64,000 nucleotides of DNA from an uncultured Lentisphaeraceae bacterium (GTDB taxonomy: Bacteria; Verrucomicrobiota; Kiritimatiellia; RFP12; DVOR01): NCBI GenBank assembly GCA_949289005.1, contig CASEMQ010000007.1, forward strand, positions 73,295 to 137,294, given 5' to 3'. The position numbers and the translations under genes are program-made. Under the pieces are notes generated by a model. That model was not told where the DNA came from. It searched no databases and was given only the letters and a program-made list of their open reading frames with translations. The first letter of the stretch is position 1. Every line of letters starts with the position of its first letter. Below, in pieces: positions 4,954-55,940 of this stretch.

Positions 4954-6012
4954 TCAGGCGAGGGCGAGCATACGTTGGACGCAGGCGTGGGCGTCGGGAA
5001 GGAGAGCGTCCGGGACGCGGACGAGCGTGTCGTCGGGCCAGGCTTGGAGGACGCGCAGGAGCGCCTCGGGGGTGGTGCGGCCCATGTCTTGGCAGATGAT
5101 GGGGCGCAGGGGGTGGATGTCGAGGTCGGGGTGTGCGGCGGCGAGGCGCCGCACAAGGTGTTCCTCGGTGCCGATGAGGAGGTGGGTGCCCGGCTCGGCG
5201 CGGGAGACGGCCTCGATGATGGCCTTGGTGGAGCCCACGGCCTCGGCGAGCGCGGCGACCTTGACGGGGGCCTCGGGATGGATGAGGAGTTCGGCGCCGG
5301 GGTGACGGGTGCGCGCGGTTGCCACATCGCCGGGGGTGTAGCCGGCGTGGATGGGGCAACAGCCGTCCCATGCCACGGCCTTCGCCGCGCGGATGCGCGT
5401 GGCGTCGAGGCCGCCATTGTCCAAGGCGCGGCGCCAGAGGGCAACGGCATCGGCAGGGAGGCCGAGCAGGTGGGCGGTGTTGGCGCAGAGGTGCTGGTCG
5501 GGCGCGAAGAAGACTTTGCGCTTGGCCGCGAAGAGGTGCCCCAACACCTTGGTCGCGTTGCCGGAGGTACAGGCCATGCCGCCGTGGCGCCCGCAGAAGG
5601 CCTTGACCTCGGCGGAAGAGTTCACGTAGACCACCGGCACCCAGGCGGCCTTTGGGTCGGCCGCGATGAGGCGCGCCCAAGCGGCCTCGAGCGCTTCCGC
5701 GGTGGCCATGTCGGCCATCGGGCAACCGGCCTTGGGCGCGGGCAACCAGACGGTGCGGCCGTTGTCGCCGCCCATCGGGCCGCGTGCCAGAATGTCCGCC
5801 GTCTCCGCCATGAAACGCACGCCGCAGAAGACGATGCGCTCGGCCGTCGATTGGGCGGCGATGCGCGAGAGTTCCAACGAGTCGCCCACCGCATCGCAGA
5901 GAGCCACCACGGAGGAATCTTGGTAATGGTGCCCCAAAATCAGCAGGCGGTCGCCCCACTTGGCGCGTTCCGCCGCGAGGGCCGCTTGGCAATCGTTCGC
6001 CGTCATGTTCAT
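4954..6012 (-). CDS. nadA: Quinolinate synthase A
   Basis: 352 aa; LILGHHYQ, FCGVRFMAETA and conserved Cys ligands typical of NadA. Confidence 0.85.
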   Translation of the reverse strand: MNMTANDCQAALAAERAKWGDRLLILGHHYQDSSVVALCDAVGDSLELSRIAAQSTAERIVFCGVRFMAETADILARGPMGGDNGRTVWLPAPKAGCPMADMATAEALEAAWARLIAADPKAAWVPVVYVNSSAEVKAFCGRHGGMACTSGNATKVLGHLFAAKRKVFFAPDQHLCANTAHLLGLPADAVALWRRALDNGGLDATRIRAAKAVAWDGCCPIHAGYTPGDVATARTRHPGAELLIHPEAPVKVAALAEAVGSTKAIIEAVSRAEPGTHLLIGTEEHLVRRLAAAHPDLDIHPLRPIICQDMGRTTPEALLRVLQAWPDDTLVRVPDALLPDAHACVQRMLALA

Positions 6013-6449
6013 TCCTCCGTTACCGTCGCGTGGCGGTCTCCCGCGTCATCCAGGGTCAGGCGCAGGGTCAGGCGGTGCGGCACCTCCGCGCCCAACACCT
6101 CCCACGCGCGTTCGGGCCATTCGATGACGACGCGCGCGCCATCCTCAAGCGCCTCCTCCAGCCCCAGGTCATAGAGCCCCTGCGGCGAGGCCAGGCGGTA
6201 GAGATCCATGTGTACCAACGCGCCGCCGTGCGGCAAGGGATAGGCATTGGCCAAGGTGAAGGTGGGGCTCGTCACGGGGCGCGCCACGCCCAACGCCTTG
6301 GCGAGCGCCTGCGTGAAGGTCGTCTTCCCCGCACCCAAATCCCCCACCAGAAGCAAGACGCCTCCCGGGCGCAACCACGCGGCCACCTCGGCGGCCAGTT
6401 CGGCCGTGTCGGCCAAGGTGCGCAATGTCCGGGAGGCGAGTGTCTTCAC
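6009..6449 (-). CDS. tsaE: tRNA threonylcarbamoyladenosine biosynthesis protein TsaE
   Basis: P-loop GDLGAGKTTF and SPTF motifs; preferred start is GTG at 6449, overlapping the stop of the upstream gene (ATGTGA). The longer ORF to 6542 would overlap nfu by about 97 nt. Confidence 0.6.
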   Translation of the reverse strand: MKTLASRTLRTLADTAELAAEVAAWLRPGGVLLLVGDLGAGKTTFTQALAKALGVARPVTSPTFTLANAYPLPHGGALVHMDLYRLASPQGLYDLGLEEALEDGARVVIEWPERAWEVLGAEVPHRLTLRLTLDDAGDRHATVTEE

Positions 6450-6676
6450 ATCACGCGCTCCACCGTGATCTCGGGATCCAGCTCCTCGCGCAGGATGCGT
6501 TGGATGCCGTCCTTGATGGTCATCGTCGCGTGCGGGCAACACCCACAGGCGCCGCGCAGGCGCAGATGCACCGTCTTCCCCTCGATGTCGATTACCTCCA
6601 AGTCCCCGCCGTCCGCCTGAAGCATGCCGCGGAGTTCCTCCAATTTCGCACGAATCTTCGTGTTCAGCTCGTTCAT
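6446..6676 (-). CDS. NifU-like (Nfu-type) Fe-S cluster scaffold domain protein
   Basis: Internal ATG at 6676 gives a 76-aa protein, MNELNTKIRAKLEE...GACGCCPHATMT (the CxxC NifU C-terminal domain); the upstream low-complexity part of the ORF is rejected. Confidence 0.65.
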   Translation of the reverse strand: MNELNTKIRAKLEELRGMLQADGGDLEVIDIEGKTVHLRLRGACGCCPHATMTIKDGIQRILREELDPEITVERVM

Positions 6677-6821: not shown

Positions 6822-9065
6822 ATGCGCAGACGGGCGTTTTTGAAGGCGATGGGTGCGTGCGTGGCGGGTTTCGCCACGGGCGGCGGGGCATGGGCGATCG
6901 GGCCGATGGAGCGGCGTTTGGCGCCGAGCGAGGCGGTGCCGCCGCCGGGGCGGGGCGCACGGCCCAATGTGATTTTGGTGCTGTGCGACGATTTGGGCTG
7001 GGGCGACTTGGGTGCCTTCTGGCAGAACACGCGCGCGGCGGCCGGCCAGCCGCACATTCACACGCCGTATCTCGACGAGGCGATGCGCCGGGGCGTGATG
7101 CTCACCAACGCCTTCACCACGGCGCCGGTCTGTGCGCCCGCGCGCGCCTCGATGGTCACCGGCAAGCACCAGGGACACTGCAATCTGCGCGACAATATGT
7201 TCGACCGCCCCGTGGACGCGCACATGACCCTGGGCACCGTGATGAAGCGTGCGGGCTACGCCACTTGGCACGTCGGCAAATGGGGCATCGGCGGCGGCTA
7301 CGAGAGTGGCGGGCAGCCCCGCCGCGCGATGGCGTGCGACGCGGGCTTCGATTATTCCTACGGTTATCCCGCGCATGGCCACGGCCATTCCTTTTACCAC
7401 TGGGAACATGCCGATTGGCGCAATTCCAACGCCGGCTCGCCCCTCGTGGAAAACGTCTCCGCCGCCGCCAAGGACGACGCTTTTTACGCAAACCTTTCCG
7501 CCGGCGCCTGCGGTTGGGAGCGCGACACGGACGGCACCTACTGGCGGCGGCTCGTCGCCGACGCCGAGTGCCGCCATTGCTATGACACCGACCTCTTCAC
7601 GGCCAAAATCAAACAGCTCATCCTGGCCCACCAAGAGGCCGGGCGCGACGCGCCTTTCTTCTGCTATGCCTGCTATACCACGAGCCACGGCTCCGGCAAC
7701 ACCCACGGCGACCCCGACATGGCCTCGACGGCCAACTTCCACGTTCCCGGCAACGCCTATCCCGAGGCGGATGCGGCGGACACACAATGGGGCGGCGGCG
7801 TGACGTGGGAGAAGGACGCGCGCGGTTACCTTCCCTTCAAGGCCGTGGACGCCGAGGGCGCCAACACCTCCAACACCTGGATCCACCCCGATTACCAAAG
7901 CCTCGACACCGACTCCAAGCGCCGCTACGCCACCAATATCCGCCGCCTGGACGACGCGCTCGGCGACCTGCTCCGCTTCCTGAAGGTGCGTGGCCTCGAC
8001 CAAAACACCCTCTTCGTCTTCACCTCCGACAATGGCCCCGCGGGCGAGTACCTCACCCCCGCCGGCATCAACTGGGTGGAGAACGCCTTCGATTCCAACG
8101 GCCCCTATCGCGGCATGAAGCGCTGGAGTTACGATGGCGGCCTGCGCGAGCCCACCTTCGCCCTCTGGCCCGGCGTCATCCCCGCATCGGGCGGCGACAC
8201 GCCCCGCGTCTGCGCGGAACCCTTTCAGTTTCCCGCGTGGATGGCCACCTTGGCCGATGTGGCCGGCCTGCCCCAACCGGCCCATTGCGACGGCGTCTCG
8301 CTCCTCCCCGCCCTCACCGGCCAAGGCCGCCAGCTCCCCATGCGCCTCTACGCCGAATACAATGACGGCGGCTCCGGGCAGAACTTCGGCTTCGAGCAGA
8401 TGGTGCGCGACGGCGACTACGTCCTCATCCGCAACAACGGCATCAACGGCACGCGCGAGCTCTACGACGTGGCCGCCGACCCCGAGCAGGCGGACAACCT
8501 CGCCGCCGACCCCGCCCAGGCCGATCGCGTGCGGTGGATGACCGACCTGCTCGTTGCCTGCCGCGTCCCGGTGGCCAAGGTGCCCGACGCCTGCGGCGCG
8601 CCCGCCGCCTACGCGAACAGCCACCCCGGCATCGAGGGTGCGGCAATGCCCGCCACGCCCCTGCGCGGCGACCTGCCGCCCATCGAGGCGCGCCTCTTCC
8701 TGACGGGCGCAGCCGAGTGGCCTTGGGTGCCCAACTTCCGCACGCTCGCCCCCGACGCCGCCTTCCTGGCGCAGACCTTCGCCGCGGTGCGCGAGCGTCT
8801 CCCCGCCGGCTGCGCCTTCGGCCTGGAACTCTCCGGCTGGATCGACGTGCCGGCGGAGGGCGACGTCACCTTTTCCGCCACCGGCGCGGGCGGTTGCCAA
8901 CTGTGGTTGCACGAGGCCCACATCCTGGAATACGAGGCGGGCGACTGTGCCGCAGGCCGTGCCATTACCCTGCGCCTGGCCAAGGGCCGGCACCCGTGGC
9001 GCCTCGCCCTCACCTCCGCCGACGGCCCCGACGGCCTCTGCGCTGTCACCTCCCTGGGCCTCTGA
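6822..9065 (+). CDS. Tat-exported sulfatase (arylsulfatase family) with ~250 aa C-terminal extension
   Basis: Twin-arginine signal MRRRAFLKAMGA...; formylglycine motif CAPARASMVTG; sulfatase core LVLCDDLGWGD, FTSDNGP; the C-terminal third is an additional beta-rich domain. Confidence 0.8.
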   Translation: MRRRAFLKAMGACVAGFATGGGAWAIGPMERRLAPSEAVPPPGRGARPNVILVLCDDLGWGDLGAFWQNTRAAAGQPHIHTPYLDEAMRRGVMLTNAFTTAPVCAPARASMVTGKHQGHCNLRDNMFDRPVDAHMTLGTVMKRAGYATWHVGKWGIGGGYESGGQPRRAMACDAGFDYSYGYPAHGHGHSFYHWEHADWRNSNAGSPLVENVSAAAKDDAFYANLSAGACGWERDTDGTYWRRLVADAECRHCYDTDLFTAKIKQLILAHQEAGRDAPFFCYACYTTSHGSGNTHGDPDMASTANFHVPGNAYPEADAADTQWGGGVTWEKDARGYLPFKAVDAEGANTSNTWIHPDYQSLDTDSKRRYATNIRRLDDALGDLLRFLKVRGLDQNTLFVFTSDNGPAGEYLTPAGINWVENAFDSNGPYRGMKRWSYDGGLREPTFALWPGVIPASGGDTPRVCAEPFQFPAWMATLADVAGLPQPAHCDGVSLLPALTGQGRQLPMRLYAEYNDGGSGQNFGFEQMVRDGDYVLIRNNGINGTRELYDVAADPEQADNLAADPAQADRVRWMTDLLVACRVPVAKVPDACGAPAAYANSHPGIEGAAMPATPLRGDLPPIEARLFLTGAAEWPWVPNFRTLAPDAAFLAQTFAAVRERLPAGCAFGLELSGWIDVPAEGDVTFSATGAGGCQLWLHEAHILEYEAGDCAAGRAITLRLAKGRHPWRLALTSADGPDGLCAVTSLGL

Positions 9066-9144
9066 CGCGCGAAAAGGGCTTGACGTGGAGTGTGCTCAAA
9101 GGTGTACACTGTGGGCATTTTGATTGAGTGAAAGGAATTGCGTT

Positions 9145-9873
9145 ATGCATATGGAGTCCATGCTTGTCTCGACCGTGGTGGGCGCCTCGTTCTGGGGCGT
9201 CTCGGGGGCCTCTCTTGGCGTGGCGGCGCCGCGCATCGATCGCGCGAAGGTGCCGTTGGCGTTGGGCGCGGGCGCGTTTGTCTTTGGCGCGCAGATGATG
9301 AATTGCGCGGTGCCGGCGACGGGCGCGAGCGGCCACTTGGTGGGCGCGGTGCTGCTGACGGCGTTGGTGGGGCCGTGGGCGGCCTTCGCGACGATGGCCG
9401 CGATTTTGGGCATTCAGTGCCTGGGCTTCAACGACGGCGGCTTTTTGGCCTACGGCGCGAACCTCTTCAACATGGGGCTCATCGGCTGTTTGTGCGGGGC
9501 GTTGGCCTTCCGCAAGGAACATTCGCCGTTGATGACGATGGCGCTGGCGCTCGTCGCGTCGGTGGCCGCCATCGTGCTGGGCGCGGTGGCTGTCTGCGCG
9601 GAGGTGGCGCTCTCGGGCATCAGCACGTTGCACATGGGCGACTTCCTTGCGGCGATGGTGCCAATCCATGTGGCCATTGGCCTGGGCGAGGGGTTGCTCA
9701 CCGGCATGATTTTGGTGGCGGCGCGGGCGAAGGTCTTCTCGTGGAAGACGCTCACGGCCACCTTCGCCCTCTGCGCGGCGGTGATTGTCCTCGGTCTCTC
9801 GCACGTGGCCTCGACCCTGCCCGACGGGTTGGAGTGGTCGATTGCGCGCGCCACCGCCCCCGCGCAACAATGA
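9145..9873 (+). CDS. cbiM: CbiM/NikM-family Ni/Co ECF-type transporter substrate component (with PDGLE-like C-terminus)
   Basis: ATG at 9145 preceded by aaaggaa; multi-TM; SGHLVGAVL motif like CbiM; C-terminal LPDGLEW; translationally coupled to larB. Confidence 0.65.
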   Translation: MHMESMLVSTVVGASFWGVSGASLGVAAPRIDRAKVPLALGAGAFVFGAQMMNCAVPATGASGHLVGAVLLTALVGPWAAFATMAAILGIQCLGFNDGGFLAYGANLFNMGLIGCLCGALAFRKEHSPLMTMALALVASVAAIVLGAVAVCAEVALSGISTLHMGDFLAAMVPIHVAIGLGEGLLTGMILVAARAKVFSWKTLTATFALCAAVIVLGLSHVASTLPDGLEWSIARATAPAQQ

Positions 9874-10556
9874 GCGACGTTTCGCCCGACCTCGGTTTCG
9901 CGCGGCTGGATCTCTCCCGCCCGCGCCGCACGGGCATGGCCGAGACAGTCTATTGCCCCGGCAAGACGGCCGGGCAGCTCATCGCCATCCTTCGCGCCTT
10001 CGCGGCGGCCGGCCAATCGGTGCTGGGCACGCGGTGCACGCCCGACCAGGCCGAGGCCGCGCGCGCGGCCGGGCTGGACGTGGCATACGAGGCCGTCGCG
10101 CGCGTCCTCACGCTAGGCGCGCCGGCGCCGGCGACGCTCGGGCGCGTCGCCGTCCTCACGGGCGGAACGGCGGATCTCCCCGTCGCCGAGGAGGCCGCGC
10201 GCTCGGCGGCTTTTTTGGGGGCGGAAGTGACGCGGTGCTACGATGTGGGCGTGGCGGGGCTGCACCGCCTGCTCGCGCGGGTGGACGAGGTGCGCGCGGC
10301 GGACGTGCTCATTGTGGTGGCGGGGATGGAGGGAGCGCTCGGCAGCGTGGTGGCGGGGCTTGTCGAGGCGCCGGTCGTCGCGGTGCCGACCTCGGTGGGG
10401 TACGGCGCGGCCTTTGGTGGGCTCGCACCCTTGCTTTCCATGCTCAACGCCTGCGCCGAGGGGTTGGCCGTGGTGAACATCGACAACGGTTTCGGCGCGG
10501 CCGTGATGGCCTGCCGGATGTTGCGCCTGGCGCAGCGAAAGGCTTCCCATGAATGA
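9870..10556 (+). CDS. larB: Nickel-pincer nucleotide biosynthesis carboxylase LarB (PurE-like)
   Basis: C-terminal 228 aa of the 9138..10556 ORF; ATG at 9870 overlaps the cbiM stop (ATGA); PurE-like VAGMEGALGSVVAG; followed by larC and larE. Confidence 0.7.
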   Translation: MSDVSPDLGFARLDLSRPRRTGMAETVYCPGKTAGQLIAILRAFAAAGQSVLGTRCTPDQAEAARAAGLDVAYEAVARVLTLGAPAPATLGRVAVLTGGTADLPVAEEAARSAAFLGAEVTRCYDVGVAGLHRLLARVDEVRAADVLIVVAGMEGALGSVVAGLVEAPVVAVPTSVGYGAAFGGLAPLLSMLNACAEGLAVVNIDNGFGAAVMACRMLRLAQRKASHE

Positions 10557-11766
10557 GTTGCTCTATCTGGATGGTTCCTGCGGCATCAGCGGCGACATGG
10601 CCGTGGCCGCGTTGATGGCGCTTGGCGCCGACCGCGCGCCGCTTGATGCCGCGCTCGCGCCCCTCGCCGCCGAGGGTCTGGCCTATACCCTCGCGCCCAA
10701 GACGGTGAACGGGTTGGCCGGCTGGGACTTCGACGTTCGCCTGCCCGAGCACGACCACCATCACGGGGAGCACGGCCACCACCACGAAGGCCATGCGCAC
10801 CGCCACGAACATCGCCATTTGGCCGACGTCGAGGCGTTGCTCGCCGCGCTCCCGATGACCGACCGCGCCCGCGACCTGGCCTTGCGCGCCTTTCGCATCG
10901 TGGCCGAGGCCGAGGCCAAGGCGCACGGTTGCGCCCTCGGCGAGGTCCATTTCCATGAGGTCGGCGCGCTCGATTCCATCGCCGACATCGTGGGCGCCGC
11001 CACGCTTTTCGACAATCTGGGCGTGCGCGACTGCGTGGTCACGCGCCTTTGCGAGGGCACCGGCACCGTCCGTTGCGCACATGGCGAGTTGCCCGTGCCC
11101 GTGCCCGCCACCCTCAACATCGCCCAAGCCCATGCCATCCCCTTGGAAATCACGGACGTGCGTGGCGAGCGTGTCACGCCCACGGGCGCGGCCCTTGCCG
11201 CCGCCTTCCGCACGCGCACGGATTTGCCCGCGCCCTTCACGGTCGTCAAGACCGGCCTTGGCCACGGCAAACGCGACCTCGGCCGCGTCAATGCCCTCCG
11301 CGCCAGCCTTATTCGCGCGGACGATGCCCCCGAGGCACTCCATGTCCTCGAGGCGAACATCGACGACTGCTCGGGCGAGACGCTCGCCGCCGCCGCCGCG
11401 ACCCTCCTGGCGCAAGGCGCCCGCGACGTCGTCTGCCTCCCCTGCCTTATGAAGAAAGGGCGCCCCGGCACGCTTGTCCAGGTGTTGGCCGACGAACCGC
11501 TCCTGCCGCGCCTTGCCGAGAGCCTCTTCCGCGAAACCACCACCATCGGCGTGCGCACCTATCCCGTCCGCCGCACCGTGATGGCGCGCACCCCCTGCCT
11601 TCTCCGGACGCCCTACGGCGAAATCCGCGCCAAACGGTGCGTTTTCGGCGACTTGGTGCGCATCTACCCGGAGGCCGACAGCGTGCGCGATGTCGCGGCC
11701 ATCGCCGGTGTGCCCTTCCCGGATGTCTTCGCCGCCGCCCAATGCGCCGCCCGCACGACCCCATGA
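10549..11766 (+). CDS. larC: Nickel insertion protein LarC (pyridinium-3,5-bisthiocarboxylate mononucleotide nickel chelatase)
   Basis: N-terminal LYLDGSCGISGDM (DUF111/LarC hallmark), His-rich stretch HDHHHGEHGHHHEGHAHRHEHRH; 8-nt overlap with larB. Confidence 0.8.
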   Translation: MNELLYLDGSCGISGDMAVAALMALGADRAPLDAALAPLAAEGLAYTLAPKTVNGLAGWDFDVRLPEHDHHHGEHGHHHEGHAHRHEHRHLADVEALLAALPMTDRARDLALRAFRIVAEAEAKAHGCALGEVHFHEVGALDSIADIVGAATLFDNLGVRDCVVTRLCEGTGTVRCAHGELPVPVPATLNIAQAHAIPLEITDVRGERVTPTGAALAAAFRTRTDLPAPFTVVKTGLGHGKRDLGRVNALRASLIRADDAPEALHVLEANIDDCSGETLAAAAATLLAQGARDVVCLPCLMKKGRPGTLVQVLADEPLLPRLAESLFRETTTIGVRTYPVRRTVMARTPCLLRTPYGEIRAKRCVFGDLVRIYPEADSVRDVAAIAGVPFPDVFAAAQCAARTTP

Positions 11767-12542
11767 CCGCCCGCGACCGACTCGAAGCCTGCCTGCGCCC
11801 CTTCCGCGCGACCGGCGTGGCCGTGGCCTACTCGGGCGGCGTGGACAGCGCACTCTTGCTGGCGGTCTTGGCCGCGTGCCGCCGCGCGGGTGACTTTCCC
11901 CTGCGCGCGCTCATCTTCCATTCCCCCCTGCAATGCGTGGACGAGGCCGACGAGGCCGTCGCCCTCCCCCATGCGCTTGGCGTGCCGTGGCGCATCGTTG
12001 AGGCCGACCCGCTGGCGGTCGTGCCGGGCCTCGCGCAAAACCCGCCCGACCGTTGCTACCGGTGCAAACGCTTCCTGCTGGGTTGCCTCCTGCGCGCTGC
12101 CGACGGGCTCCCCTTGGTGGATGGCACGAACGCCGACGACCGCCGTGCCGGCGACCGTCCCGGCCTCCGCGCACTGGCCGAACGCGGCGTGCGTTCGCCC
12201 CTCGCCGAGGCCGGCCTGACCAAGGCCGAGGTGCGCGCCCTCGCCCGCGCCTTCGCCCTGCCGATGGCCGACCGCCCCGCGTCGCCCTGCCTCGCCACGC
12301 GCGTCCCCTTCGGCGTGCCCCTCACGCCTGCGCGTCTCCGCCGCGTGGAGACCGCCGAGGCATGCGTCCGCGCATGTCTTCCCGAGGTGGCCGACCTTCG
12401 CGTGCGCGACCGTTTTCCCGAGGCGTGCCTGGAGGTGCCGTCGCCCGCGCTGGCGTTGGTTGCCGCCCGCCGCCCCGCCCTCGAGGCCGCGCTCGCTCCC
12501 GTCGGCTTCGCCGCGCTCACGTTCGCCCCGCTCCATCCCTGA
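11763..12542 (+). CDS. larE: ATP-dependent sacrificial sulfur transferase LarE (PP-loop ATPase)
   Basis: ATG at 11763 overlaps the larC stop (ATGA); PP-loop SGGVDS; conserved Cys-containing C-terminal half; about 260 aa. Confidence 0.75.
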   Translation: MTARDRLEACLRPFRATGVAVAYSGGVDSALLLAVLAACRRAGDFPLRALIFHSPLQCVDEADEAVALPHALGVPWRIVEADPLAVVPGLAQNPPDRCYRCKRFLLGCLLRAADGLPLVDGTNADDRRAGDRPGLRALAERGVRSPLAEAGLTKAEVRALARAFALPMADRPASPCLATRVPFGVPLTPARLRRVETAEACVRACLPEVADLRVRDRFPEACLEVPSPALALVAARRPALEAALAPVGFAALTFAPLHP

Positions 12543-20863: not shown

Positions 20864-21454
20864 TCACCGTTCACCGTTTTCTGCTTTTAGTTCGCCGGGC
20901 TCGACTTGGATGGGCGTGGATTCGTTGAGGAGGGCGCGGAGGGTGAGGATGGCCCAAGCGGTGGGTTCGGGGGCGCCCCAGTGGCCGCCCCGGGCAGAGA
21001 TGCGTTGGCTGTCGATCAAGGCCAGGGCCAGGCGTTCGCGCCAATCGGCGGGGGGAGGGGGCTCGGCGGCGGGCAGGTCGCGTTGGAGCGCGAAGAGCGT
21101 CTTGGGGTCGGGCTTTTGCGCGAGGGTTGCGGTGAGGTTGGTGAGCGCGGCGGGGGCGACGGGGCCGGGAAGCGTCTCGCCCAGCGGCGTCACATGGCAC
21201 CGCGGCAGACGGAAGGTCTCGCCGGGCTTGGCGAGCGCGTAGCGGCGCAGAAGCACCTGTGCGAGGTCGTTGGTGGCGGGCGGCTGCACGGCCAGCCAGC
21301 GCTGGGCGCGGTCGATGGCGTTGTCGGCCTCCTGCGCGATGGAGAGCGGCAGGCGCCCCTCGGTCGCCACGCGGAAGACGCCGCCCTGGGCGTGGCACGG
21401 CAACGCGCCCGGCAGGAACGAGAGTGTGAGAACCGCAAGGAGGAGAGGGCGCAT
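20864..21454 (-). CDS. Hypothetical secreted protein
   Basis: 196 aa with N-terminal signal peptide MRPLLLAVLTLSFLPGALPCHAQ; no confident family assignment. Confidence 0.4.
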   Translation of the reverse strand: MRPLLLAVLTLSFLPGALPCHAQGGVFRVATEGRLPLSIAQEADNAIDRAQRWLAVQPPATNDLAQVLLRRYALAKPGETFRLPRCHVTPLGETLPGPVAPAALTNLTATLAQKPDPKTLFALQRDLPAAEPPPPADWRERLALALIDSQRISARGGHWGAPEPTAWAILTLRALLNESTPIQVEPGELKAENGER

Positions 21455-21472
21455 GAGGGGGCCTTTCGGTGG

Positions 21473-23426: not shown

Positions 23427-24413
23427 TCACGCGTTCATGTACCCGGCGGCCGGCCCTTCGCGGAAATAGGCCACCGTTCGCGACAAGCCTTCGCGCAGAT
23501 GCACCCGAGGCTCCCAACCCAGACAATCCCGCGCCCACGCGATGTCCGGTCGGCGCCGGTGCGGGTCGTCCTTCGGCAAGGGACGCGACACGATGCCGCC
23601 GCCGGAGGGCACCAGGCGCAGCACCTCGTCCGCCAATTCCCGCACCGTGATTTCCTCGGGATTGCCCAAGTTCAACACCGGCAACGCCATGCCTTTCGCC
23701 GCGAAAAAGGCGTCTACCTCCGCCCGCGGCTTTGCCACGTAGGCCATGAATCCCGCCAACAAATCGTCCACGAATTGAAAGCCGCGCGTTTGTCGCCCTT
23801 CCCCATAGAGCGTCAGCGCCTCCCCGTGGAGCGCCTGCATGATGAAGTTCGAGACCACCCGGCCATCCGCCGGGTCCATGAACGGCCCATAGGTGTTGAA
23901 GATACGTGCCACGCGCACGTCCACGCCCCACGCCCGCCGCGCTTCCATCGCCAACGTCTCCGCCACGCGCTTCCCCTCGTCGTAGCAACTGCGCGGCCCC
24001 AAGGGATTCACGTGCCCCCAATACGTCTCTGTCTGCGGATGCATTAATGGGTCGCCATAAATCTCGCTCGTCGAGGCATGCACCACCCGTGCGCCGCACC
24101 GTCGCGCCAACGCCAACACTTGCCGCATCCCATCGATGGACGTCGTAAGCGTGAACACCGGGTCACGCTGATACCGCGGCGGCGAGGCCGGGCACGCCAG
24201 GTTGAACACCCAGTCGTACCGCCCCGCGATCGGCTCGCGCACATCCCCCTCAATCAGACGCACGTCCATCCCGGCCATGTTCGCGCGCCGCCCAGACCAA
24301 AAGTTGTCCAACACCGTGACCGAATGGCCCGCGGCGACCAAACGCCGCGCCAAGTTCGCCCCGATAAATCCGGCCCCGCCGGCAATCAACACCTCTGCCA
24401 TAACGTGCACCAT
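23427..24413 (-). CDS. NAD-dependent epimerase/dehydratase (UDP-glucuronate decarboxylase / UDP-xylose synthase-like)
   Basis: Rossmann motif GGAGFIGANL; YDEGKR catalytic motif; start taken at ATG 24413 (alternative 24401). Confidence 0.65.
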   Translation of the reverse strand: MVHVMAEVLIAGGAGFIGANLARRLVAAGHSVTVLDNFWSGRRANMAGMDVRLIEGDVREPIAGRYDWVFNLACPASPPRYQRDPVFTLTTSIDGMRQVLALARRCGARVVHASTSEIYGDPLMHPQTETYWGHVNPLGPRSCYDEGKRVAETLAMEARRAWGVDVRVARIFNTYGPFMDPADGRVVSNFIMQALHGEALTLYGEGRQTRGFQFVDDLLAGFMAYVAKPRAEVDAFFAAKGMALPVLNLGNPEEITVRELADEVLRLVPSGGGIVSRPLPKDDPHRRRPDIAWARDCLGWEPRVHLREGLSRTVAYFREGPAAGYMNA

Positions 24414-24598
24414 TCTACCAAACCCAGCCCCCACGCGCCGCCTCCTTGTCGAAGGGGCCCGGACTGCCCGAAGCGCAATTTCTCCCGGATACGCTTGGGC
24501 GTGGGGTGGGGTTGGTGGCGAAAGGCGCGAAGATGTGCTATCTTTTTGTGCGTTGGGCACGGAAGCGTCCGTGCCCGCGGGATAAATGGGAGATGATT

Positions 24599-25537
24599 AT
24601 GGCAACGGAAGCGAACGCGGTTTATCTGAGCGGCTTTTTCTCAGAGGCGGATATTGCCTTTGACCAGACGGTGCCTTCGGCCTACAACATGGTGTACGCA
24701 TTGGTGGAGCGGGTGGTGGCCAACCATTTGCCCGGCGTGCAGGCAGAGAAAATCGTGGACGCGGTGTTGCGGCGCGAACGGTTGTCGCCGACGGTGGTGG
24801 GCGAGGGCGTGGCGTTGCCGCATGCGCGCATCGAAGGCATCGAGCGGCCGTATATGGCGCTGGGCATCTATCCCTCGGGTATTCCCGCGCCTGAGGGGGG
24901 CAAGCCCGTGCAACTGGTCTTCCTGCTCTTGGTTCCCGAGCAACAGCCCGCGCGCTACCTTCAGATTTTGCGGGCGTTGGCCAATCTGTTGCGTGAGCCC
25001 GGGACCGTGGAGCGCTTGGCGACCATGCGCGATGCCGCGGAGGTGATGCGTTTCCTGCGGCGCAGCGAGATGAAGTTGCCGGATTATATCTGCGCGGGCG
25101 ACTTGATGAGTGTGGAGACGGACGCGGTGCGCGCGGATGCGCCGCTCTCGACCGCGCTGGATGCCTTCATGGATCTGAACAAGGTGGAGCTGCCGATTGT
25201 GGATGAGGAGGGGCATTTGGTGGGCGCGGTGGACACGCACGCCTTGCTGGGGTGTTTCATCCCCAAAGGGTTCCGCAAACTCTTCCCCACACTCCAGGCA
25301 ACCCCCGCCAACACGATGGAGCCGCTGGCCGAACGTCTGCGCGAGACGCATCGCATCCGTGTGCGCGAGGCCATGAACATCGATGTCTGCACCTGCTTGG
25401 TGGACACGCCCGCGCGCGAGATTGCCGCCGACTTGGCCGAGCGCAACGCGGTGAAGTGCTATGTGGTGGACAAGGCCGGCGTGCTCGTCGGGGTGATCCC
25501 GCTGGCGCAGTTCTTCCGTCGTATCCTGCGCGATTGA
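24599..25537 (+). CDS. PTS EIIA(Ntr)-type (EIIA-2) domain protein fused to a CBS-domain pair
   Basis: N-terminal ~150 aa with EIIA-2 features (VALPHARIEG active-site-His region); C-terminal two CBS-like modules; encoded immediately upstream of the ClC gene. Confidence 0.55.
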   Translation: MATEANAVYLSGFFSEADIAFDQTVPSAYNMVYALVERVVANHLPGVQAEKIVDAVLRRERLSPTVVGEGVALPHARIEGIERPYMALGIYPSGIPAPEGGKPVQLVFLLLVPEQQPARYLQILRALANLLREPGTVERLATMRDAAEVMRFLRRSEMKLPDYICAGDLMSVETDAVRADAPLSTALDAFMDLNKVELPIVDEEGHLVGAVDTHALLGCFIPKGFRKLFPTLQATPANTMEPLAERLRETHRIRVREAMNIDVCTCLVDTPAREIAADLAERNAVKCYVVDKAGVLVGVIPLAQFFRRILRD

Positions 25538-25561
25538 GCCGCTTCCCCGCGACGCACGGCC

Positions 25562-27109
25562 ATGCCTAGCCGCCCCCATCTTCCGCCGGTGAGCGACCTC
25601 CTGCACGGGAGCCGCCAGTCGTGGCGGTGGTTTCGCTTTTGGATGCCGGCGGAGGGCGAGACGCTGCGCATGGGGCGCATTGTCTGCATTTGCGCGGCGG
25701 TCGGGGTGTTGGCGGGGCTGATGGCCATTTGGTTCTTCTCGATGATTGAATGGGTGCGTGTCTACGCGCTGGAAGGGCTCGGGCGGATCACCCTCCCCGC
25801 GGCGGCGGGCGAAATCGCGATTGCCCATACGCCCGAATTGCGCTATACCCTCCTGGAGCGCATCCACCCTGCGCTCGCCACGTCCTTCGCGGGGTTTGTC
25901 CGCCTGCTCTTGCCGGCCGTGGGTGCGCTCTTGGCCTGCCTGCTGGCGCGGCGGTTCGCGCCTTCGGCGGGCGGGCACGGCACGGACACCGTCATCGCGG
26001 CTTATCACCACAGCGCCACCAACATTCCCGTGGCCGTCGCGCCCGTCAAGGTCTTGGCCTCCAGCCTCGTCATCGGCACCGGGGGAAGTGCGGGCGCGGA
26101 GGGCCCCATCACGCAAATCGGCGCGGCGTGCGGCGCCTTCGTGGGGCGTACGCTCCATCTGTCGCTCTACGAACGGCGCGTGCTTTTGGCTGCCGGCATG
26201 GCTGCCGGCATCGGTGCCATCTTCCGTGCGCCGATGGCCGGTGCGCTTTTCTCGGCCGAGGTGCTCTATCGCGGCTTCGATTTGGAAGGCGACGTGCTCA
26301 TCCCCTCGATGGTCGCCTCCACCATCTCGTACATGACCTTTGCCTGTGTTTTTGGGTGGGAACCGCTCTTCAGCACGCCCCATGAACTCTTCGCAGCCCC
26401 GCCCCGTTTCGTGTGCTACACCTGCCTGGCCTTCCTCATCGCCGCCGCCGTCCGCTTCAATATCCTCTTCTTCAGGCAGACCGAGATCGTTTTCCGCCGG
26501 CTCGCCTTGCCCCCGTGGTCCAAGCCCGCCATCGGCGGCCTGCTCGTGGGCGCCATTGGTCTCTGCTTTCCGCAAATCCTCTCCTCGGGCTACGGCTACA
26601 TCCAGCAGACACTTCAGGCCAACGCCGAAGTCCTCGCCTCCCCCGCCTTTCTTCCCAACGCCATCCTCGTGCTCTTCGCGCTCGGCGCGCTCAAGGCCGT
26701 CGCCACCGCCTTTACCGTGGGTAGCGGAGGCGCGGGCGGCATGCTCGGCCCCGCGCTCTTCAGCGGCGCGATGTATGGCGCGGGCTGTGGCGCGCTCTTC
26801 GCCACACTCTTTCCCGGGCTGGGCCTTTCGCTTTCCAACTGCGCCATGCTCGGCATGGCCGGCTATCTCACCGCCGCCGTCCGCACGCCTTTGGCAGCCA
26901 TCCTCATGGTCAGCGAGTTCACGGGCAACCACGGGCTCCTTCTTCCGGCCATGTGGGTCTGCGGGCTCTCCTTCCTCCTTTCCCCCGGCTGGACGCTCTA
27001 CCGCAGCCAAGTCCGCGACCGCGACTCCTCCCCTGCCCATCTCCGCCGCCACGCCTCCCTTCGCCACGATGTCTCCGTCCACGTCAAGCGCCGCAAGCGC
27101 CGCCGCTGA
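25562..27109 (+). CDS. ClC family chloride channel / H+-Cl- antiporter
   Basis: Multi-TM; ClC selectivity-filter-like motifs GTGGSAGAEGP and GIFRAPMAGALF; no C-terminal CBS domains. The start could be the internal ATG at 25670. Confidence 0.7.
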   Translation: MPSRPHLPPVSDLLHGSRQSWRWFRFWMPAEGETLRMGRIVCICAAVGVLAGLMAIWFFSMIEWVRVYALEGLGRITLPAAAGEIAIAHTPELRYTLLERIHPALATSFAGFVRLLLPAVGALLACLLARRFAPSAGGHGTDTVIAAYHHSATNIPVAVAPVKVLASSLVIGTGGSAGAEGPITQIGAACGAFVGRTLHLSLYERRVLLAAGMAAGIGAIFRAPMAGALFSAEVLYRGFDLEGDVLIPSMVASTISYMTFACVFGWEPLFSTPHELFAAPPRFVCYTCLAFLIAAAVRFNILFFRQTEIVFRRLALPPWSKPAIGGLLVGAIGLCFPQILSSGYGYIQQTLQANAEVLASPAFLPNAILVLFALGALKAVATAFTVGSGGAGGMLGPALFSGAMYGAGCGALFATLFPGLGLSLSNCAMLGMAGYLTAAVRTPLAAILMVSEFTGNHGLLLPAMWVCGLSFLLSPGWTLYRSQVRDRDSSPAHLRRHASLRHDVSVHVKRRKRRR

Positions 27110-29787: not shown

Positions 29788-29865
29788 GAACTAAGCGCGC
29801 CACGCACACATAAACAGGGCGCCTTCGCCGGCGCGACGGACACGCCAAACGAGAAAGGTTACGCG

Positions 29866-30579
29866 ATGCGTACGTCAACCTTCCGCACAAGCACCCGCCC
29901 GTCGCCCGCGCGTCGGGCGCCCTGCCTCCTTTTCATCTCCCTTGCACTCCTTCTCGCCGCCTGCGTCTCGGGTCCAAACCTCCGCGCGCTCAACCCCGAC
30001 GAGGCCAAAATCGATGTCTACGCCGATGGCACCGTCCACGTCCTTGGCGAACCCGTCGCGATGGGCGACCTCTCCGGTATTGTCAAAGGCTCCACCACCC
30101 AGCCCGCCGACACCATCCTCATCCGCCTCCACGGCGACCCCGACAGCCCCGAATTCACCGAGCTGCGCAAATACGTCACCGATCAGATGATCCGCGCCGG
30201 CCACTACAAGTTTCGCTTCTTCTCCACTCCCCAAGCCTCCATCACCACCTACGACCCCCGCACCGGCAAAGCCGAGACCTCCGTCTCCGGCCTCCCCGTG
30301 CGCCAACTCTCCGGCCGCGAAATCGAAGCCGAGGCCCAACGCATGAGCGCCGACTCCGACGCCTACAGCGCCGGCACCTACGTCTCCGAAGCCGCCAACC
30401 GCAAGCCCTCCCAAATCTCCCAAGGCCGCCCCGACGCACTCGCCATCGCCCCCCAAGCCGTCGACCTCAAAACCGCCCCTGGCGCCGCCAAGGCCGCCCC
30501 CGCCAAGCCGATCGATGACGAAGACTCCCTCCGCGCCCGCTACCTCCGCCAGCAACGCCAACTGAAAGGCCGCCCATGA
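29866..30579 (+). CDS. Hypothetical lipoprotein
   Basis: Signal peptide with lipobox LLAAC; low-complexity Ala/Pro-rich C-terminus; 4-nt overlap with murE. Confidence 0.4.
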   Translation: MRTSTFRTSTRPSPARRAPCLLFISLALLLAACVSGPNLRALNPDEAKIDVYADGTVHVLGEPVAMGDLSGIVKGSTTQPADTILIRLHGDPDSPEFTELRKYVTDQMIRAGHYKFRFFSTPQASITTYDPRTGKAETSVSGLPVRQLSGREIEAEAQRMSADSDAYSAGTYVSEAANRKPSQISQGRPDALAIAPQAVDLKTAPGAAKAAPAKPIDDEDSLRARYLRQQRQLKGRP

Positions 30580-34754: not shown

Positions 34755-35516
34755 TCACTGATCTCCTTGGGCGAAACGCGCGCTCAGCGCGCGTTCGTAG
34801 TCCTTGGGTTGCCGTTTGGCGAAGAGCGCGTAGCCCTTGAACACCCAGAGGCGCCGCAGGCGCAGGTGCGCCAGGAAGAGGCGCGCCCGGTTTCGCGGAA
34901 AGGCCCCCGGCCCTTCGTTGAAGCCGCCCGCGCCGTCGAAATAATAATGGTAGTAGTGCTTGTAGACCGACGACAAATCCGCCAGGCAGAGAATCCGCCG
35001 TGCCCATCGCGGGAACCAGCGCCGCAACGGCACGCCTGACTGGAAGTCGATCAGCGCGGGGTGCTCCCCCGGCAACACGATGACGTTCTTTGCGTTGCGC
35101 AAATCCAGGTGCGTCACCCCGCGCCGGTGCATCGCGCACACCAGCCGCTCCAGCTCCCGGAAGAAACGCGGCCGCAACCTGGGATACGCGGCCTTGCCCG
35201 CCCATTCGGACGCGTTGCGGTCGCCCAACGAAATCCCCGGCAGGCACGCCATCGCCAATGCATAGGCATCCACCCGCTCCACGCGCCCCGGGATGCCTGG
35301 GAGGCCCTGAAGGTGTTGCAGCAACGCGACTTCGTGGCGCACCATCCACCGCCCCCAGGTCCAGCGAATCAAGGCCGGGCATCGACGGAAGTCCTTGATG
35401 ACCATCGGCCCCGCCGGCGTCTCGATGCGCCAGACGCATGCGTTGCCCGCCCTGCCCATGCTCAGGCATTGCGCCGCGCCCGTTTCCCAGTCTTGCCTTG
35501 TCACGCTCGTTCCCAT
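34755..35516 (-). CDS. Lipopolysaccharide kinase (Kdo/WaaP) family protein
   Basis: Protein-kinase-like catalytic loop HLDLRNAKNVIV and IDFQS; start chosen at ATG 35516. Confidence 0.5.
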   Translation of the reverse strand: MGTSVTRQDWETGAAQCLSMGRAGNACVWRIETPAGPMVIKDFRRCPALIRWTWGRWMVRHEVALLQHLQGLPGIPGRVERVDAYALAMACLPGISLGDRNASEWAGKAAYPRLRPRFFRELERLVCAMHRRGVTHLDLRNAKNVIVLPGEHPALIDFQSGVPLRRWFPRWARRILCLADLSSVYKHYYHYYFDGAGGFNEGPGAFPRNRARLFLAHLRLRRLWVFKGYALFAKRQPKDYERALSARFAQGDQ

Positions 35517-35651
35517 GCTTGTTCCGTTTTCCCACAGTATAGCACAACGCGTTTGTTCGCGGGAACGTCGTCGGGGCGGCCGGGGCGAACGCATGGGCAC
35601 TTGCCCCGGGTTGCCGGCGGATGTGGCCGGCGGTCGCCGCGCTCGGCGCGC

Positions 35652-47242: not shown

Positions 47243-47323
47243 TGGGCCCGGAGGGGGTCGAACCCTCACGCCTGGGGCACAGGAACCTAAATCCTGCGTG
47301 TCTGCCAATTCCACCACGAGCCC
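47243..47323 (-). tRNA. tRNA-Leu (anticodon TAG), class II with long variable arm; CCA not encoded
   Basis: Minus-strand sequence GGGCTCG-TG-GTGGAATTGGCAGACAC-G-CAGGA-TTTAGGT-TCCTG-TGCCCCAGGCGTGA-GGGTTCGACCCCC-TCCGGGCCC-A folds into a cloverleaf with a 7-bp acceptor stem (one G-U pair), 3-bp D stem and TTCGA T-loop. Confidence 0.8.
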
Positions 47324-47409
47324 GTAAAATGCTCGCAGTATAGCACATTCCCCAATCCTTTGCCGCCGCACGCCGATTGCCCAATCGTACGCGGGTCAAG
47401 CTGGCGTTC

Positions 47410-49020
47410 ATGGCCAACCAGGAAAATCTGGCGGAGATGGGCAGGGCTGGGCGGGTCCTTGACACGCTCGCCAAATTGGTACGCGCGCTCGCGGAGGCGC
47501 TCCACGCCGTCAGGCCAAGGCAGGGATTGGATGGCGCGGGCTCGGTGCTTGACGCGTTCCTGAAGGAGACGGCGCCTTCGCAGGGGGCCGAGCGGACGCT
47601 CCGCGAAAGCGGCGTCCCCGTGGACGAAATCAACGAAATGGAAGCGGCGCAAGCCCCGCAAGAGCCCGCGCCGGAAACGTCCGCGCCGGAAGAAAAGCAA
47701 CGGGCGCAGGCCAAACGCCGCGACCTGATGGAGCGCCGCAGAAGGAAGTATTCCACAGAAAGCGTGTGGGATGAGCCAACCGTTACCGTGCGGAGTGTGC
47801 GCAACCCGGACGTCCGCTGGAGCACGGAAGACGTGGGTGATGATGTCTTGAACGCGATGGATATGCTTGCCCAAGGACGGGACACGACTATTCAGAGCAA
47901 CGCGCTGGGCGAGGTCGTCTATCCGTTTGGCAAGTTCGGCAAGGGTGGAAGTGGGTTCTTGCACATTGTCGAGCGGCGCATGGAACAGGGGCATACGCTT
48001 GAGGAGGCTATCGAGATTGCCTTGCGCGTGGGCGAGGCGGCGGCAAGAGGTGAGAAAACTTCTGAACAGGGAAACATTCGTTGGCTTGACCGTAATGGGC
48101 ACAGAGCGGTCGTGGCAATAAATGAGAATGATAAACCGATTATAACTGGGTATGATATTTATCCAAAAGAAAGCGCGGGTGATGAACGGATGCCTATACT
48201 CCCGCCGTCCAACTCCGCACCTATTCCCCCGGGCCGCAAAGAAGAGGTGGTTGCCGCGCTGAAACAGATTGTAGCAAACATCCGTTCGGCCCGTGGTGTG
48301 CGGCACTCGACGGAGGACGTGGGCTCGTCGCGTTTTTCGGAGACGCGGGAGGGGAAGCGGATTGTGGCGGCGCTGGTGGACAACCTGATTGCGCACCAGG
48401 CTGACTTGGCGTTCGGGAACGAGGCGCTGGCGGAGCGTCTGGCGCAGAAGGGGAACGCGGGCGTGGGGAAGTGGAACAAGGTGACGCGGGTCTCGGAGAA
48501 CGGGACGGTGTTGCCGGGGAACGCGGAGGAGCTGGCGCGGGAGGAGGCGTTCAGGGCGTGGCAGTTCGGGCGGCCGGGTGGCGAAGACCTGAAGGGCTTG
48601 GTACGCGCGTGCGGGGGCGCGGCGAACTGGCTAGACGTGGTGGGGACGGCGTACGAGGTGCTGTCGGCGATACGTTCTGGGAACCTGCTCGGTGGGCTAA
48701 ACAAGACGGTGGCGGAACGTTTCGGGAAGAACGAGAAGGAGGCGGTGGGGTGGTACGTGCAGAGGATTGTGTCCGCGCGCGCGACGGACTTTGGGCAGAA
48801 GTGCTACCTGATGGGGCGGAAGTTCGCGACGGATTTGATGCGGGAGGCGAACGCGAGCGCGATTGCGGAGCTGCGCCGTGAGTACAAGGGAAAACTTTCG
48901 GAGGAGCGCGGGAAGACGCGGAAGGCGAAGGAGCGTGCATGTGGGCTTGAGCGGACGGCAGAGCGGCGCGAGGCGAACCTTCGCGCGGCGGAAGCCAGCC
49001 CCATAAGAACGTTCCGGTAG
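47410..49020 (+). CDS. Hypothetical protein, compositionally atypical (low GC), internal duplication
   Basis: ATG at 47410 (a TTG at 47377 is also in frame); GC is visibly lower (about 55%) than its surroundings; two related segments (VRNPDVRWSTEDVGDDV and ARGVRHSTEDVGSSRF); no family recognised. Confidence 0.5.
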   Translation: MANQENLAEMGRAGRVLDTLAKLVRALAEALHAVRPRQGLDGAGSVLDAFLKETAPSQGAERTLRESGVPVDEINEMEAAQAPQEPAPETSAPEEKQRAQAKRRDLMERRRRKYSTESVWDEPTVTVRSVRNPDVRWSTEDVGDDVLNAMDMLAQGRDTTIQSNALGEVVYPFGKFGKGGSGFLHIVERRMEQGHTLEEAIEIALRVGEAAARGEKTSEQGNIRWLDRNGHRAVVAINENDKPIITGYDIYPKESAGDERMPILPPSNSAPIPPGRKEEVVAALKQIVANIRSARGVRHSTEDVGSSRFSETREGKRIVAALVDNLIAHQADLAFGNEALAERLAQKGNAGVGKWNKVTRVSENGTVLPGNAEELAREEAFRAWQFGRPGGEDLKGLVRACGGAANWLDVVGTAYEVLSAIRSGNLLGGLNKTVAERFGKNEKEAVGWYVQRIVSARATDFGQKCYLMGRKFATDLMREANASAIAELRREYKGKLSEERGKTRKAKERACGLERTAERREANLRAAEASPIRTFR

Positions 49021-54493: not shown

Positions 54494-54509
54494 ATTTCCA
54501 TCCCATCCA

Positions 54510-54700
54510 GACCTGTCGAAAACTTTGCGAAACCTGTTGAAAACCTGTTGAGACCGCCTCGCCCCGGAGGCACCCGAAATCCGGCTTTTCAATCTATACG
54601 CGGGGTCATTTTCCGGGATGCGCCGTATCTCCCCCCGAGGCACGCCGCATCCCGCATCGAGGCACGCCGCGTCCCGGGACGCGGCGGCCGCGGGGCTTTC
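54510..54700 (-). repeat. Dispersed ~190 bp intergenic repeat element, copy 4 (reverse orientation), ending 17 nt upstream of the helicase start
   Basis: Its reverse complement has three tandem units (ggacgcggcgtgcctcgatgcgg, gatgcggcgtgcctcggggggagat, acggcgcatcccggaaaa), GACCCCGCGTATAGATTGAAAAG and CAACAGGTTTTCAACAGGTTTCGCAAAGTTTTCGACAGG. Confidence 0.8.
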
Positions 54701-54848
54701 TCCCTGCGCACACAGCCCCTGGACAGGGCTGCGACTTTTGGTATCCGCCCGGTTTTTTACGCTTGCCATCGCGTGGGGGAAGGTCTATAATAGCCACCTG
54801 TAACGTACGACTAGGGCTTGTGCCCAAGACAAGGAAAGGACAAGACAC

Positions 54849-55565: not shown

Positions 55566-55628
55566 GTTTTTCCGGCGCGGCGGGCCGAGCCCGCCGCGCC
55601 CCGATCGCGACACGAAAGGAAGACTGCG

Positions 55629-55940
55629 ATGAAGTATCTGCACACGGGCATGATCGTCGGCGAGAAGTTGCCGGAGATGATTTACATGGAGCCGCTCAAG
55701 GTCTGGGTGACCGACGCCACCAAGGACAAGTATGCCATTGAGTTCCTGTACTTCGAGATTGATTCCCCGATGGCCGCCGCCATCCAAGAGCAGCCCCACG
55801 TGGCCTACGAGGTGGAGGACATCGACGCGGCGCTGGAGGGCAAGTCGATCCTCTGGCAGAAGATGGACGTGGGCAACGCCTACATCGCCTTTGTCTACGA
55901 CAACGACACGGTGGTCGAGTTCTACCAGCCCAAGAAGTGA
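55629..55940 (+). CDS. Small hypothetical protein (103 aa)
   Basis: ORF with SD aaggaag 8 nt upstream; sits between the cupin lipoprotein and dhaK; no family recognised. Confidence 0.4.
   Translation: MKYLHTGMIVGEKLPEMIYMEPLKVWVTDATKDKYAIEFLYFEIDSPMAAAIQEQPHVAYEVEDIDAALEGKSILWQKMDVGNAYIAFVYDNDTVVEFYQPKK

Follow-up and report, generated by a model that had tools for sequence, protein, structure and literature searches.

Organometallic cofactors are few in biology; the nickel-pincer nucleotide (NPN) is one of them, and new enzymes that depend on it are actively sought. Among the closest known systems is the lar locus of Lactiplantibacillus plantarum, larA-larB-larC1/C2-larD-larE plus larR-lar(MN)-larQ-larO (compare PMC13510736 and PMC9283937). 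Lar clusters without larA are reported from "hundreds of prokaryotes" and have been mined for new nickel enzymes; the non-LarA users that came from such clusters are NphT, which has an aldo-keto reductase (AKR) fold, and an ornithine cyclodeaminase that uses NPAD, the adenine-dinucleotide variant of the cofactor (PMC13524815). Here we describe a cluster of this type in a 64,000-nucleotide stretch (the window) of contig CASEMQ010000007.1, from an uncultured Lentisphaeraceae bacterium. It consists of a cbiM-like gene, larB, larC and larE, and is very probably an NPN operon that carries its own nickel importer. The larBCE trio with an M-type nickel component is a known Lar system, and larA-less clusters are already documented. 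The only feature for which we found no description is the membrane protein, a short form of CbiM fused to a PDGLE domain (CbiM-PDGLE), which has no CbiQ/CbiO neighbours and is fixed in the lar operon of its clade.

The window cluster has in common with the L. plantarum locus LarB, LarC and LarE, whose catalytic residues are kept, and a nickel substrate-binding (S) component of the M type encoded alongside them. Unlike that locus, it is without larA, larD, larR and LarQ/LarO. LarC is encoded in one fused frame, in contrast to the two frames joined by programmed frameshift in L. plantarum; LarE carries a CxxC...C pattern instead of a single sacrificial Cys; and the M protein stops just past PDGLE, unlike that of the L. 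plantarum locus. The larA-less clusters associated with NphT likewise contain LarB, LarC and LarE and have no LarA within 20 genes of LarC (PMC13524815), but the window cluster differs from them in that no PF00248 gene or conserved NAD(P)-type oxidoreductase adjoins it.

The four genes are packed on the + strand in the order cbiM-like, larB, larC, larE and span positions 9145-12542 of the window, which has a G+C content of about 67%:

9145-9873, + strand: cbiM-like gene, short CbiM/NikM-type S component, 242 residues (PF01891; fold match to NikM2/CbiM)
9870-10556, + strand: larB (NF033503; alignment to L. plantarum LarB)
10549-11766, + strand: larC, CTP-dependent nickel insertase/cyclometallase, 405 residues in one frame (PF01969; LarC1 and LarC2 models)
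11763-12542, + strand: larE, ATP-dependent sulfur insertase, 259 residues (TIGR00268; PP-loop and Cys motif)

Our claims rest on the gene identities, the conserved residues, a fold model of the importer, conservation of the operon in six species-level lineages and purifying selection. A first, sequence-only reading of this DNA had proposed four translationally coupled genes, and the junctions bear this out. The cbiM/larB junction at 9870 reads caacaATGAgcg and the larC/larE junction at 11763 reads cccATGAccg, each an ATGA with a 4-nt overlap; at the larB/larC junction (cccATGAATGAgtt) the larC ATG at 10549 and the larB TGA at 10554-10556 leave 8 nt in common (10549-10556). That reading opened the locus at 9066, the first base past the stop codon of the upstream sulfatase gene, and cbiM itself begins at 9145. 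The earliest possible start of the cbiM-like frame is TTG 9124. ATG 9145 is the credible start because it gives a Met-His N-terminus, has GAAAGGAA 7 nt upstream and agrees with the public gene call of an identical protein (242 residues, same start). An N-terminal Met-His is obligatory in the CbiM family.

The identities proposed earlier for all four genes hold, with family scores (Pfam and NCBIfam profile libraries, curated cut-offs) and residue-level alignments against solved structures in agreement. LarB scores 268 bits with NF033503 (cut-off 175) and stays below the cut-off of the PurE model (41 bits against 150). Its residues 7-221 align with the L. plantarum LarB structures 7MJ0/8SOQ (E 4e-65). 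GMEGAL is kept, and LNACAEG of the window protein aligns with MLNSCASG, the Cys falling on chain residue 221 of L. plantarum LarB. Cys221, which goes with Glu180, is the active-site residue that forms the transient cysteinyl-pyridine intermediate. A cysteinyl-pyridine mechanism of LarB is named in the title of a reference listed in PMC9283937.

LarC matches PF01969 with 400 bits (cut-off 22.1) and the NCBIfam LarC1 and LarC2 models with 189 and 123 bits (cut-offs 90 and 50), LarC1 and the CTP-binding LarC2 domain being fused in the single 405-residue frame. It aligns over its full length with Moorella LarC (12BI; E 2e-55) and keeps GDM, HRH, AE, VHFHEVGA.D...D and C.HG. These motifs correspond to the residues D15, H70/R71/H72, E104, H108, H116, H118, E119, D124, D128 and H160, which are required for LarC activity (PMC13510736). 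The His-rich tract covers residues 67-91 (25 residues). The motifs named in the earlier reading are all present: LLYLDGSCGISGDM and the His-rich EHDHHHGEHGHHHEGHAHRHEHRH in LarC, SGGVDS in LarE and TLPDGLEWS in CbiM. A loss of catalytic residues, which the earlier reading named as a refutation, was not seen at the positions compared: LarB keeps Glu180 and Cys221, LarC its cluster of His residues and its acidic pocket, and LarE its PP-loop and Cys residues.

LarE scores 195 bits with TIGR00268 (cut-off 150) and aligns with L. plantarum LarE (5UDQ/6B2O), with its PP-loop SGGVDS at residues 24-29. Cys98-Tyr-Arg-Cys101 and Cys176 form the CxxC...C pattern, and these three Cys residues are kept in all six species. 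The combination of SGGxDS and CxxC...C is found in most LarE homologues; in Thermotoga maritima LarE the three Cys residues bind a [4Fe-4S] cluster and the enzyme is catalytic, not sacrificial (PMC9283937). At the level of motifs, the window protein resembles the T. maritima enzyme, with Cys98/101/176 here and Cys92/95/172 there (PMC9283937). LarE would thus belong to the [4Fe-4S] catalytic class and not to the sacrificial L. plantarum type, and the CxxC...C motif means that the name attached to TIGR00268, "ATP-dependent sacrificial sulfur transferase LarE", is probably wrong here.

The CbiM-like protein matches PF01891 with 131 bits (E 6e-38; cut-off 23.1). Its match to the PDGLE profile PF13190 (25.7 bits) lies just below the cut-off of 27 and covers profile positions 4-37 of 102 only. 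The protein consists of an N-terminal Met-His loop, a NikM core, one extra helix and PDGLE (residues 226-230), and ends 12 residues further on. The nearest solved sequences are those of TtNikM2 (4M58/4M5B; E 6e-14). An AlphaFold model built on 104 homologues has a pLDDT of 90.5, and in a Foldseek search it gave TM scores of 0.70-0.74 to 4M58/4M5B and of 0.73 to CbiM of the CbiMQO complex 5X3X. Identity is about 28% to TtNikM2 and about 20% to Rhodobacter CbiM (5X3X), with which the window protein shares the fold, the N-terminal Met-His loop and the second His ligand. It differs from both in its N-terminus (MHMES against MHIP(D/E)G), in an extra C-terminal helix with PDGLE, and in that its gene adjoins neither a Q/O module nor a partner of the N, K or L kind.

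CbiM/NikM S components have a seven-helix fold in which an extracellular N-terminal Met1-His2 loop makes up a four-nitrogen metal site with a His of the alpha2-alpha3 linker. In TtNikM2, nickel is bound by the Met1 amine, the backbone and side chain of His2 and by His67, and the N-terminal loop is held by Gln94, Gly101, Gly102 and Asn109 (PMC3945884). TtNikM2 residues M1, H2, H67, Q94, G101, G102 and N109 correspond to M1, H2, H64, Q91, G98, G99 and N106 here, invariant or nearly so in the 104 homologues; H64, Q91, D97, G98, G99, N106, H175, E182 and PDGLE are invariant. Together, the metal-site residues and the fold match identify the protein as an M-type metal S component.

Among the best 120 homologues, ten are of 239-242 residues, start with MHMES, MHMET or MHLES and stop 10-12 residues past PDGLE. 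The other 110 are of 265-365 residues, mostly start with MHM(A/S)DAL and run on for 48-106 residues past PDGLE, a stretch that contains a final hydrophobic helix. Identity falls from 66% to 46% between the two groups. The "PDGLE-like tail" of the earlier reading is a clade-specific truncation of a normally 300-365-residue CbiM-PDGLE protein. The GTDB species representatives contain the short clade in five metagenome-assembled genomes (MAGs) labelled Kiritimatiellaeota (L007-L011); the one protein of the ten with a source name (P0009) is from a Kiritimatiellia MAG, and a metagenome scan added one further member, L093. The lar cluster holds the short cbiM in all five MAGs, as cbiM-larB-larC-larE in four and as larC-cbiM-larE in the most distant, and no CbiQ/CbiO lies within 10 kb of the cluster in any of them. 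The order cbiM-larB-larC-larE also recurs in metagenome contigs with unrelated flanks.

The long CbiM-PDGLE nickel transporters of the energy-coupling factor (ECF) type, such as L004, L044, L061 and L066, belong to the same subfamily (40-47% identity), have the MHM start and an invariant PDGLE, and often lie in a lar neighbourhood. In contrast to the clade described here (239-242 residues, with neither CbiQ nor CbiO), they are 297-365 residues long, with 48-106 residues and the last helix after PDGLE, and are followed by CbiQ/CbiO. CbiQ and/or CbiO lie directly downstream at 73 of the 78 genome loci outside the clade, nine of which also carry lar genes, one of these nine with LarA (L066). In metagenomes, 66 of 73 complete long forms have CbiQ/CbiO and about 22 of 73 have lar genes. 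One long form terminates a urease cluster, again with CbiQ/CbiO. The recurrent position of long homologues beside urease or lar genes ties the CbiM-PDGLE subfamily to nickel and NPN synthesis, and the importer of the window would be specific for nickel rather than cobalt.

We consider it highly improbable that the membrane protein imports cobalt, or has some other role unrelated to NPN, and sits in the operon by accident. No clade member has its gene outside the lar cluster, the rearranged larC-cbiM-larE included; urease or lar genes recur beside its long homologues; and the window contains neither cobalamin genes nor a cobalamin riboswitch. Cobalt import would find some support in the related short form of Cetobacterium (L025), which stands beside ethanolamine-utilisation-like genes, a B12-dependent pathway, and in the fact that CbiM and NikM are indistinguishable from sequence, the planar site also fitting Co2+ (PMC3945884).

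A different concern is that the short cbiM could be the decaying remnant of a Lar(MN)QO transporter that no longer transports, nickel reaching LarC by some other route. The clade proteins have lost the C-terminal 50-100 residues, and with them the final membrane helix, and are without the CbiQ/CbiO that nearly always follow their 300-365-residue relatives. The truncation point is nevertheless constant: all ten representatives of the clade, with identities as low as 66%, stop 10-12 residues past PDGLE, and the metal-site residues and PDGLE are all invariant. The ratio of nonsynonymous to synonymous substitution (dN/dS) of the short cbiM between species is 0.13-0.40, which together with the fixed stop position indicates that the gene is not decaying and is under purifying selection. 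The gene also stands first in the operon, behind a conserved promoter-like block and ribosome-binding site, and overlaps or abuts larB. A similarly truncated 264-residue form in L050 precedes intact CbiQ/CbiO, which shows that a transporter can have this short architecture and still be a working one. We regard a decaying remnant as very improbable and retain the reading of a nickel importer belonging to the NPN operon.

Short forms were also seen outside the clade. At L050:9840-12138, the 264-residue CbiM stops 12 residues past PDGLE, with CbiQ and CbiO directly behind it; at least one complete operon of the ECF type can thus do without the second helix of the PDGLE domain. A second, Fibrimonadaceae-like short clade of about 250 residues (L017:10001-10753, L104, L169) has no CbiQ/CbiO within 10 kb and no adjoining lar genes; the open reading frame (ORF) after its short cbiM putatively resembles a short-chain dehydrogenase (N-terminal sequence read only). 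Cetobacterium sp. 2A (L025:10001-10762) encodes a 253-residue short CbiM-PDGLE, likewise with no CbiQ/CbiO within 10 kb and no lar neighbours, and the ORFs after it putatively resemble ethanolamine-utilisation genes on the basis of their N-terminal sequences only. The forms in L025, L017, L104 and L169 (250-253 residues) stop 12-14 residues past PDGLE. A strict pairing of truncation with loss of CbiQ/CbiO is ruled out by L050, which is short and has both, and by L030, L078 and L094, which are long and have neither.

Pfam scans, tblastn and six-frame profile searches bear out the earlier statement that the window has no LarA and no CbiQ/CbiO. All credible window genes were scanned with Pfam, six-frame hmmsearch was run with LarA (a small profile) and CbiQ profiles, and tblastn was run with L. 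plantarum LarA, the query having been checked against PDB 5HUQ. A near-identical contig (L088) adds 10 kb to the left of the window. LarA (PF09861) was found neither in the 64-kb window, by Pfam and tblastn, nor in the 10 kb to its left (L088), and no LarA lies within 10 kb of the clusters of L003 and L007-L011 either; the only LarA met in the searches is that of L066, an unrelated long-form locus. The six-frame LarA and CbiQ profiles gave no match at E<=10 in the window and clade loci. CbiQ (PF02361), CbiO and CbiN were found neither among the window genes nor in the 10 kb to the left, nor within 10 kb of the clusters of five related species. The three ATP-binding cassette (ABC) ATPases of the window are parts of phosphonate, ABC-2 and MacB-type systems. 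A complete ECF-type Ni/Co transporter combines M with N or K/L, Q and O. As a two-helix auxiliary element, neither a complete PDGLE domain nor CbiN accompanies the importer, PDGLE being only partial, with 12 residues before the end of the protein. The importer could be energised by CbiQ/CbiO or a shared ECF module encoded elsewhere, or could support module-independent basal transport.

Of the non-LarA users, NphT-type enzymes are PF00248 proteins with a His/Lys motif, and the ornithine cyclodeaminase belongs to PF02423; their genes adjoin larBCE (PMC13524815). No match to an NphT-type aldo-keto reductase (PF00248) or to ornithine cyclodeaminase (PF02423) was found in the window genes or L088, or within 10 kb of the clusters of five related species. 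When genes were compared over 10 kb on either side of the cluster in these five species, the window had nothing but the operon genes in common with them, and the flanks differ among the related species too, except in the close pair L008/L011. With flanks that are not conserved, synteny points to no cofactor user, and as a route to the acceptor enzyme it gave no lead. The enzyme that receives the cofactor must be encoded elsewhere; it is most likely a racemase or epimerase of the LarA family, or otherwise one of the newer non-LarA users or another enzyme. The question of which enzyme uses NPN is no longer limited to LarA homologues.

The larA-less layout also raises the possibility that the cluster makes not NPN but NPAD or another derivative, destined for a non-LarA enzyme. 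Clusters of larBCE that lack larA are known to go with AKR-fold NPN enzymes and with an ornithine cyclodeaminase that depends on NPAD (PMC13524815), and larA is not near the cluster described here. LarB, on the other hand, is a full equivalog of the carboxylase/hydrolase with an end-to-end alignment to L. plantarum LarB, and genes of the PF02423 and PF00248 families are missing from the window and the 10 kb to its left. On balance we judge an NPAD-type product quite improbable and NPN the product to be expected.

Several observations weigh against the interpretation as an NPN operon with its own importer. The T/A component (CbiQ/EcfT, CbiO/EcfA) is absent from the 64 kb and the additional 10 kb, leaving ATP-driven import locally unsupported, and a cofactor-using enzyme was not found in the window, L088 or the clade loci searched. 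The scores of the CbiM-like protein with the NCBIfam CbiM equivalog models are all far under the cut-offs (best 88 against 219), so that substrate specificity is not automatically transferable; the same scores place the protein in a separate CbiM-PDGLE subfamily. The distant clade member L010 (= L002) is without an adjacent larB and its larE is apparently truncated. At L010 the arrangement larC-cbiM-larE occupies 8844-11264, with a larE call of only 186 residues that stops soon after the third Cys, and larB is missing from the 10 kb on either side; the variant could be genuine or could reflect a fault in the MAG assembly.

Taken as an NPN operon, the cluster suggests the following pathway. The short CbiM/NikM-type protein would capture Ni2+ outside the cell in its square-planar site and then move the ion inward. 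LarB would carboxylate nicotinic acid adenine dinucleotide (NaAD) at C5 and hydrolyse off AMP. LarE would adenylylate both carboxylates and convert them to thiocarboxylates, probably acting catalytically through a [4Fe-4S] cluster on Cys98, Cys101 and Cys176 that is recharged by a cysteine desulfurase. LarC, with CTP and its His-rich surface, would insert nickel to form the C-Ni bond. A more far-reaching proposal is that a gut Kiritimatiellaeota or "Ca. Spyradenecus"-like lineage has a minimal nickel-to-cofactor module, with a truncated CbiM-PDGLE working without an ECF module and a cofactor user that is neither LarA, AKR/NphT nor ornithine cyclodeaminase; in this full form we consider it unlikely.

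Upstream of cbiM, the 79-nt gap that follows the sulfatase gene contains a block that resembles a promoter whose spacer holds an operator:

9079-9110, + strand: promoter-like block, conserved upstream of cbiM in five species
9080-9085, + strand: -35-like TTGACG
9088-9097, + strand: imperfect inverted repeat GAGTGTGCTC, inside the spacer
9105-9110, + strand: -10-like TACACT, with a 19-nt spacer
9130-9137, + strand: Shine-Dalgarno-like GAAAGGAA, 7 nt 5' of ATG 9145, kept in all five aligned species

The five species share a conserved block CTTGACGTGGAGT...CTC...GT.TA.A.T upstream of cbiM, while the other flanking sequence is unalignable. Across species it reads CTTGACG, an inverted repeat, TA(C/T)A(C/G)T and then GAAAGGAA before the ATG, and lies at 9079-9140 in the window, at about 9930-10000 in L007, L008 and L009 and at about 290-360 in L011. 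The inverted repeat is a perfect palindrome, GAGTATACTC, in L008 and L011, and may be the operator for a regulator, perhaps a nickel-responsive one. A strict sigma-70 promoter scan did not call the block and found nothing. At Rfam gathering thresholds the window contains two tRNAs only, with no riboswitch or other RNA, and its two terminator-like matches are fewer than expected from shuffled sequence.

The operon is flanked on the left by genes for a sulfatase, NifU, TsaE, NadA, a phosphatase and an ABC system of the phosphonate type, and on the right by genes for threonine ammonia-lyase, an ABC-2 pair, HolB, PlsY, GpsA, PurA and UppS, among others. The PurA protein clusters with one named from "Candidatus Spyradenecus sp.", a taxon placed by NCBI in the Lentisphaerota, whereas the closest lar clusters bear the label Kiritimatiellaeota; both labels fall in the PVC group, and animal-gut samples are named for several related contigs. 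NadA (quinolinate synthase), TsaE and a 76-residue NifU-like protein are encoded at 4954-6676 on the - strand, divergent upstream of the sulfatase gene and the lar operon. The product of NadA goes into NaAD synthesis, and NifU serves the assembly of Fe-S clusters. As candidates for functional linkage, NadA, TsaE and NifU were set aside: they do not stand beside the cluster in other species, and their adjacency is probably coincidence.

Elsewhere in the window, a gene that joins an EIIA-2 domain of the phosphotransferase system (PTS) to CBS domains (24404-25537) stands immediately before one for a ClC-type chloride channel (25538-27109); the two are rarely paired, which suggests that anion transport is regulated here. 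A tRNA-Leu gene (47243-47323, - strand) is followed by a 558-residue ORF (47344-49020, + strand) with no Pfam match and a third-position G+C of 0.75, somewhat below that of its neighbours, which may be foreign DNA at the tRNA. At 51017-54784 (- strand) lies a gene for a 1255-residue SNF2-family helicase whose first ~790 residues have no Pfam match. Five ORFs well supported by high third-position G+C are without a Pfam match, among them 20864-21472 (- strand), 29788-30579 (+ strand), 34755-35651 (- strand) and 54804-55940 (+ strand); that at 20864-21472 opens with a putative signal-peptide-like sequence.

With no candidate cofactor user beside it, the locus does not directly advance the search for NPN enzymes. 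It adds an example from the PVC group in which a pathway with a predicted Fe-S-type LarE is combined with a stripped-down nickel-binding membrane protein. The short CbiM-PDGLE form could serve as a test case for metal S components that work without a dedicated ECF module.

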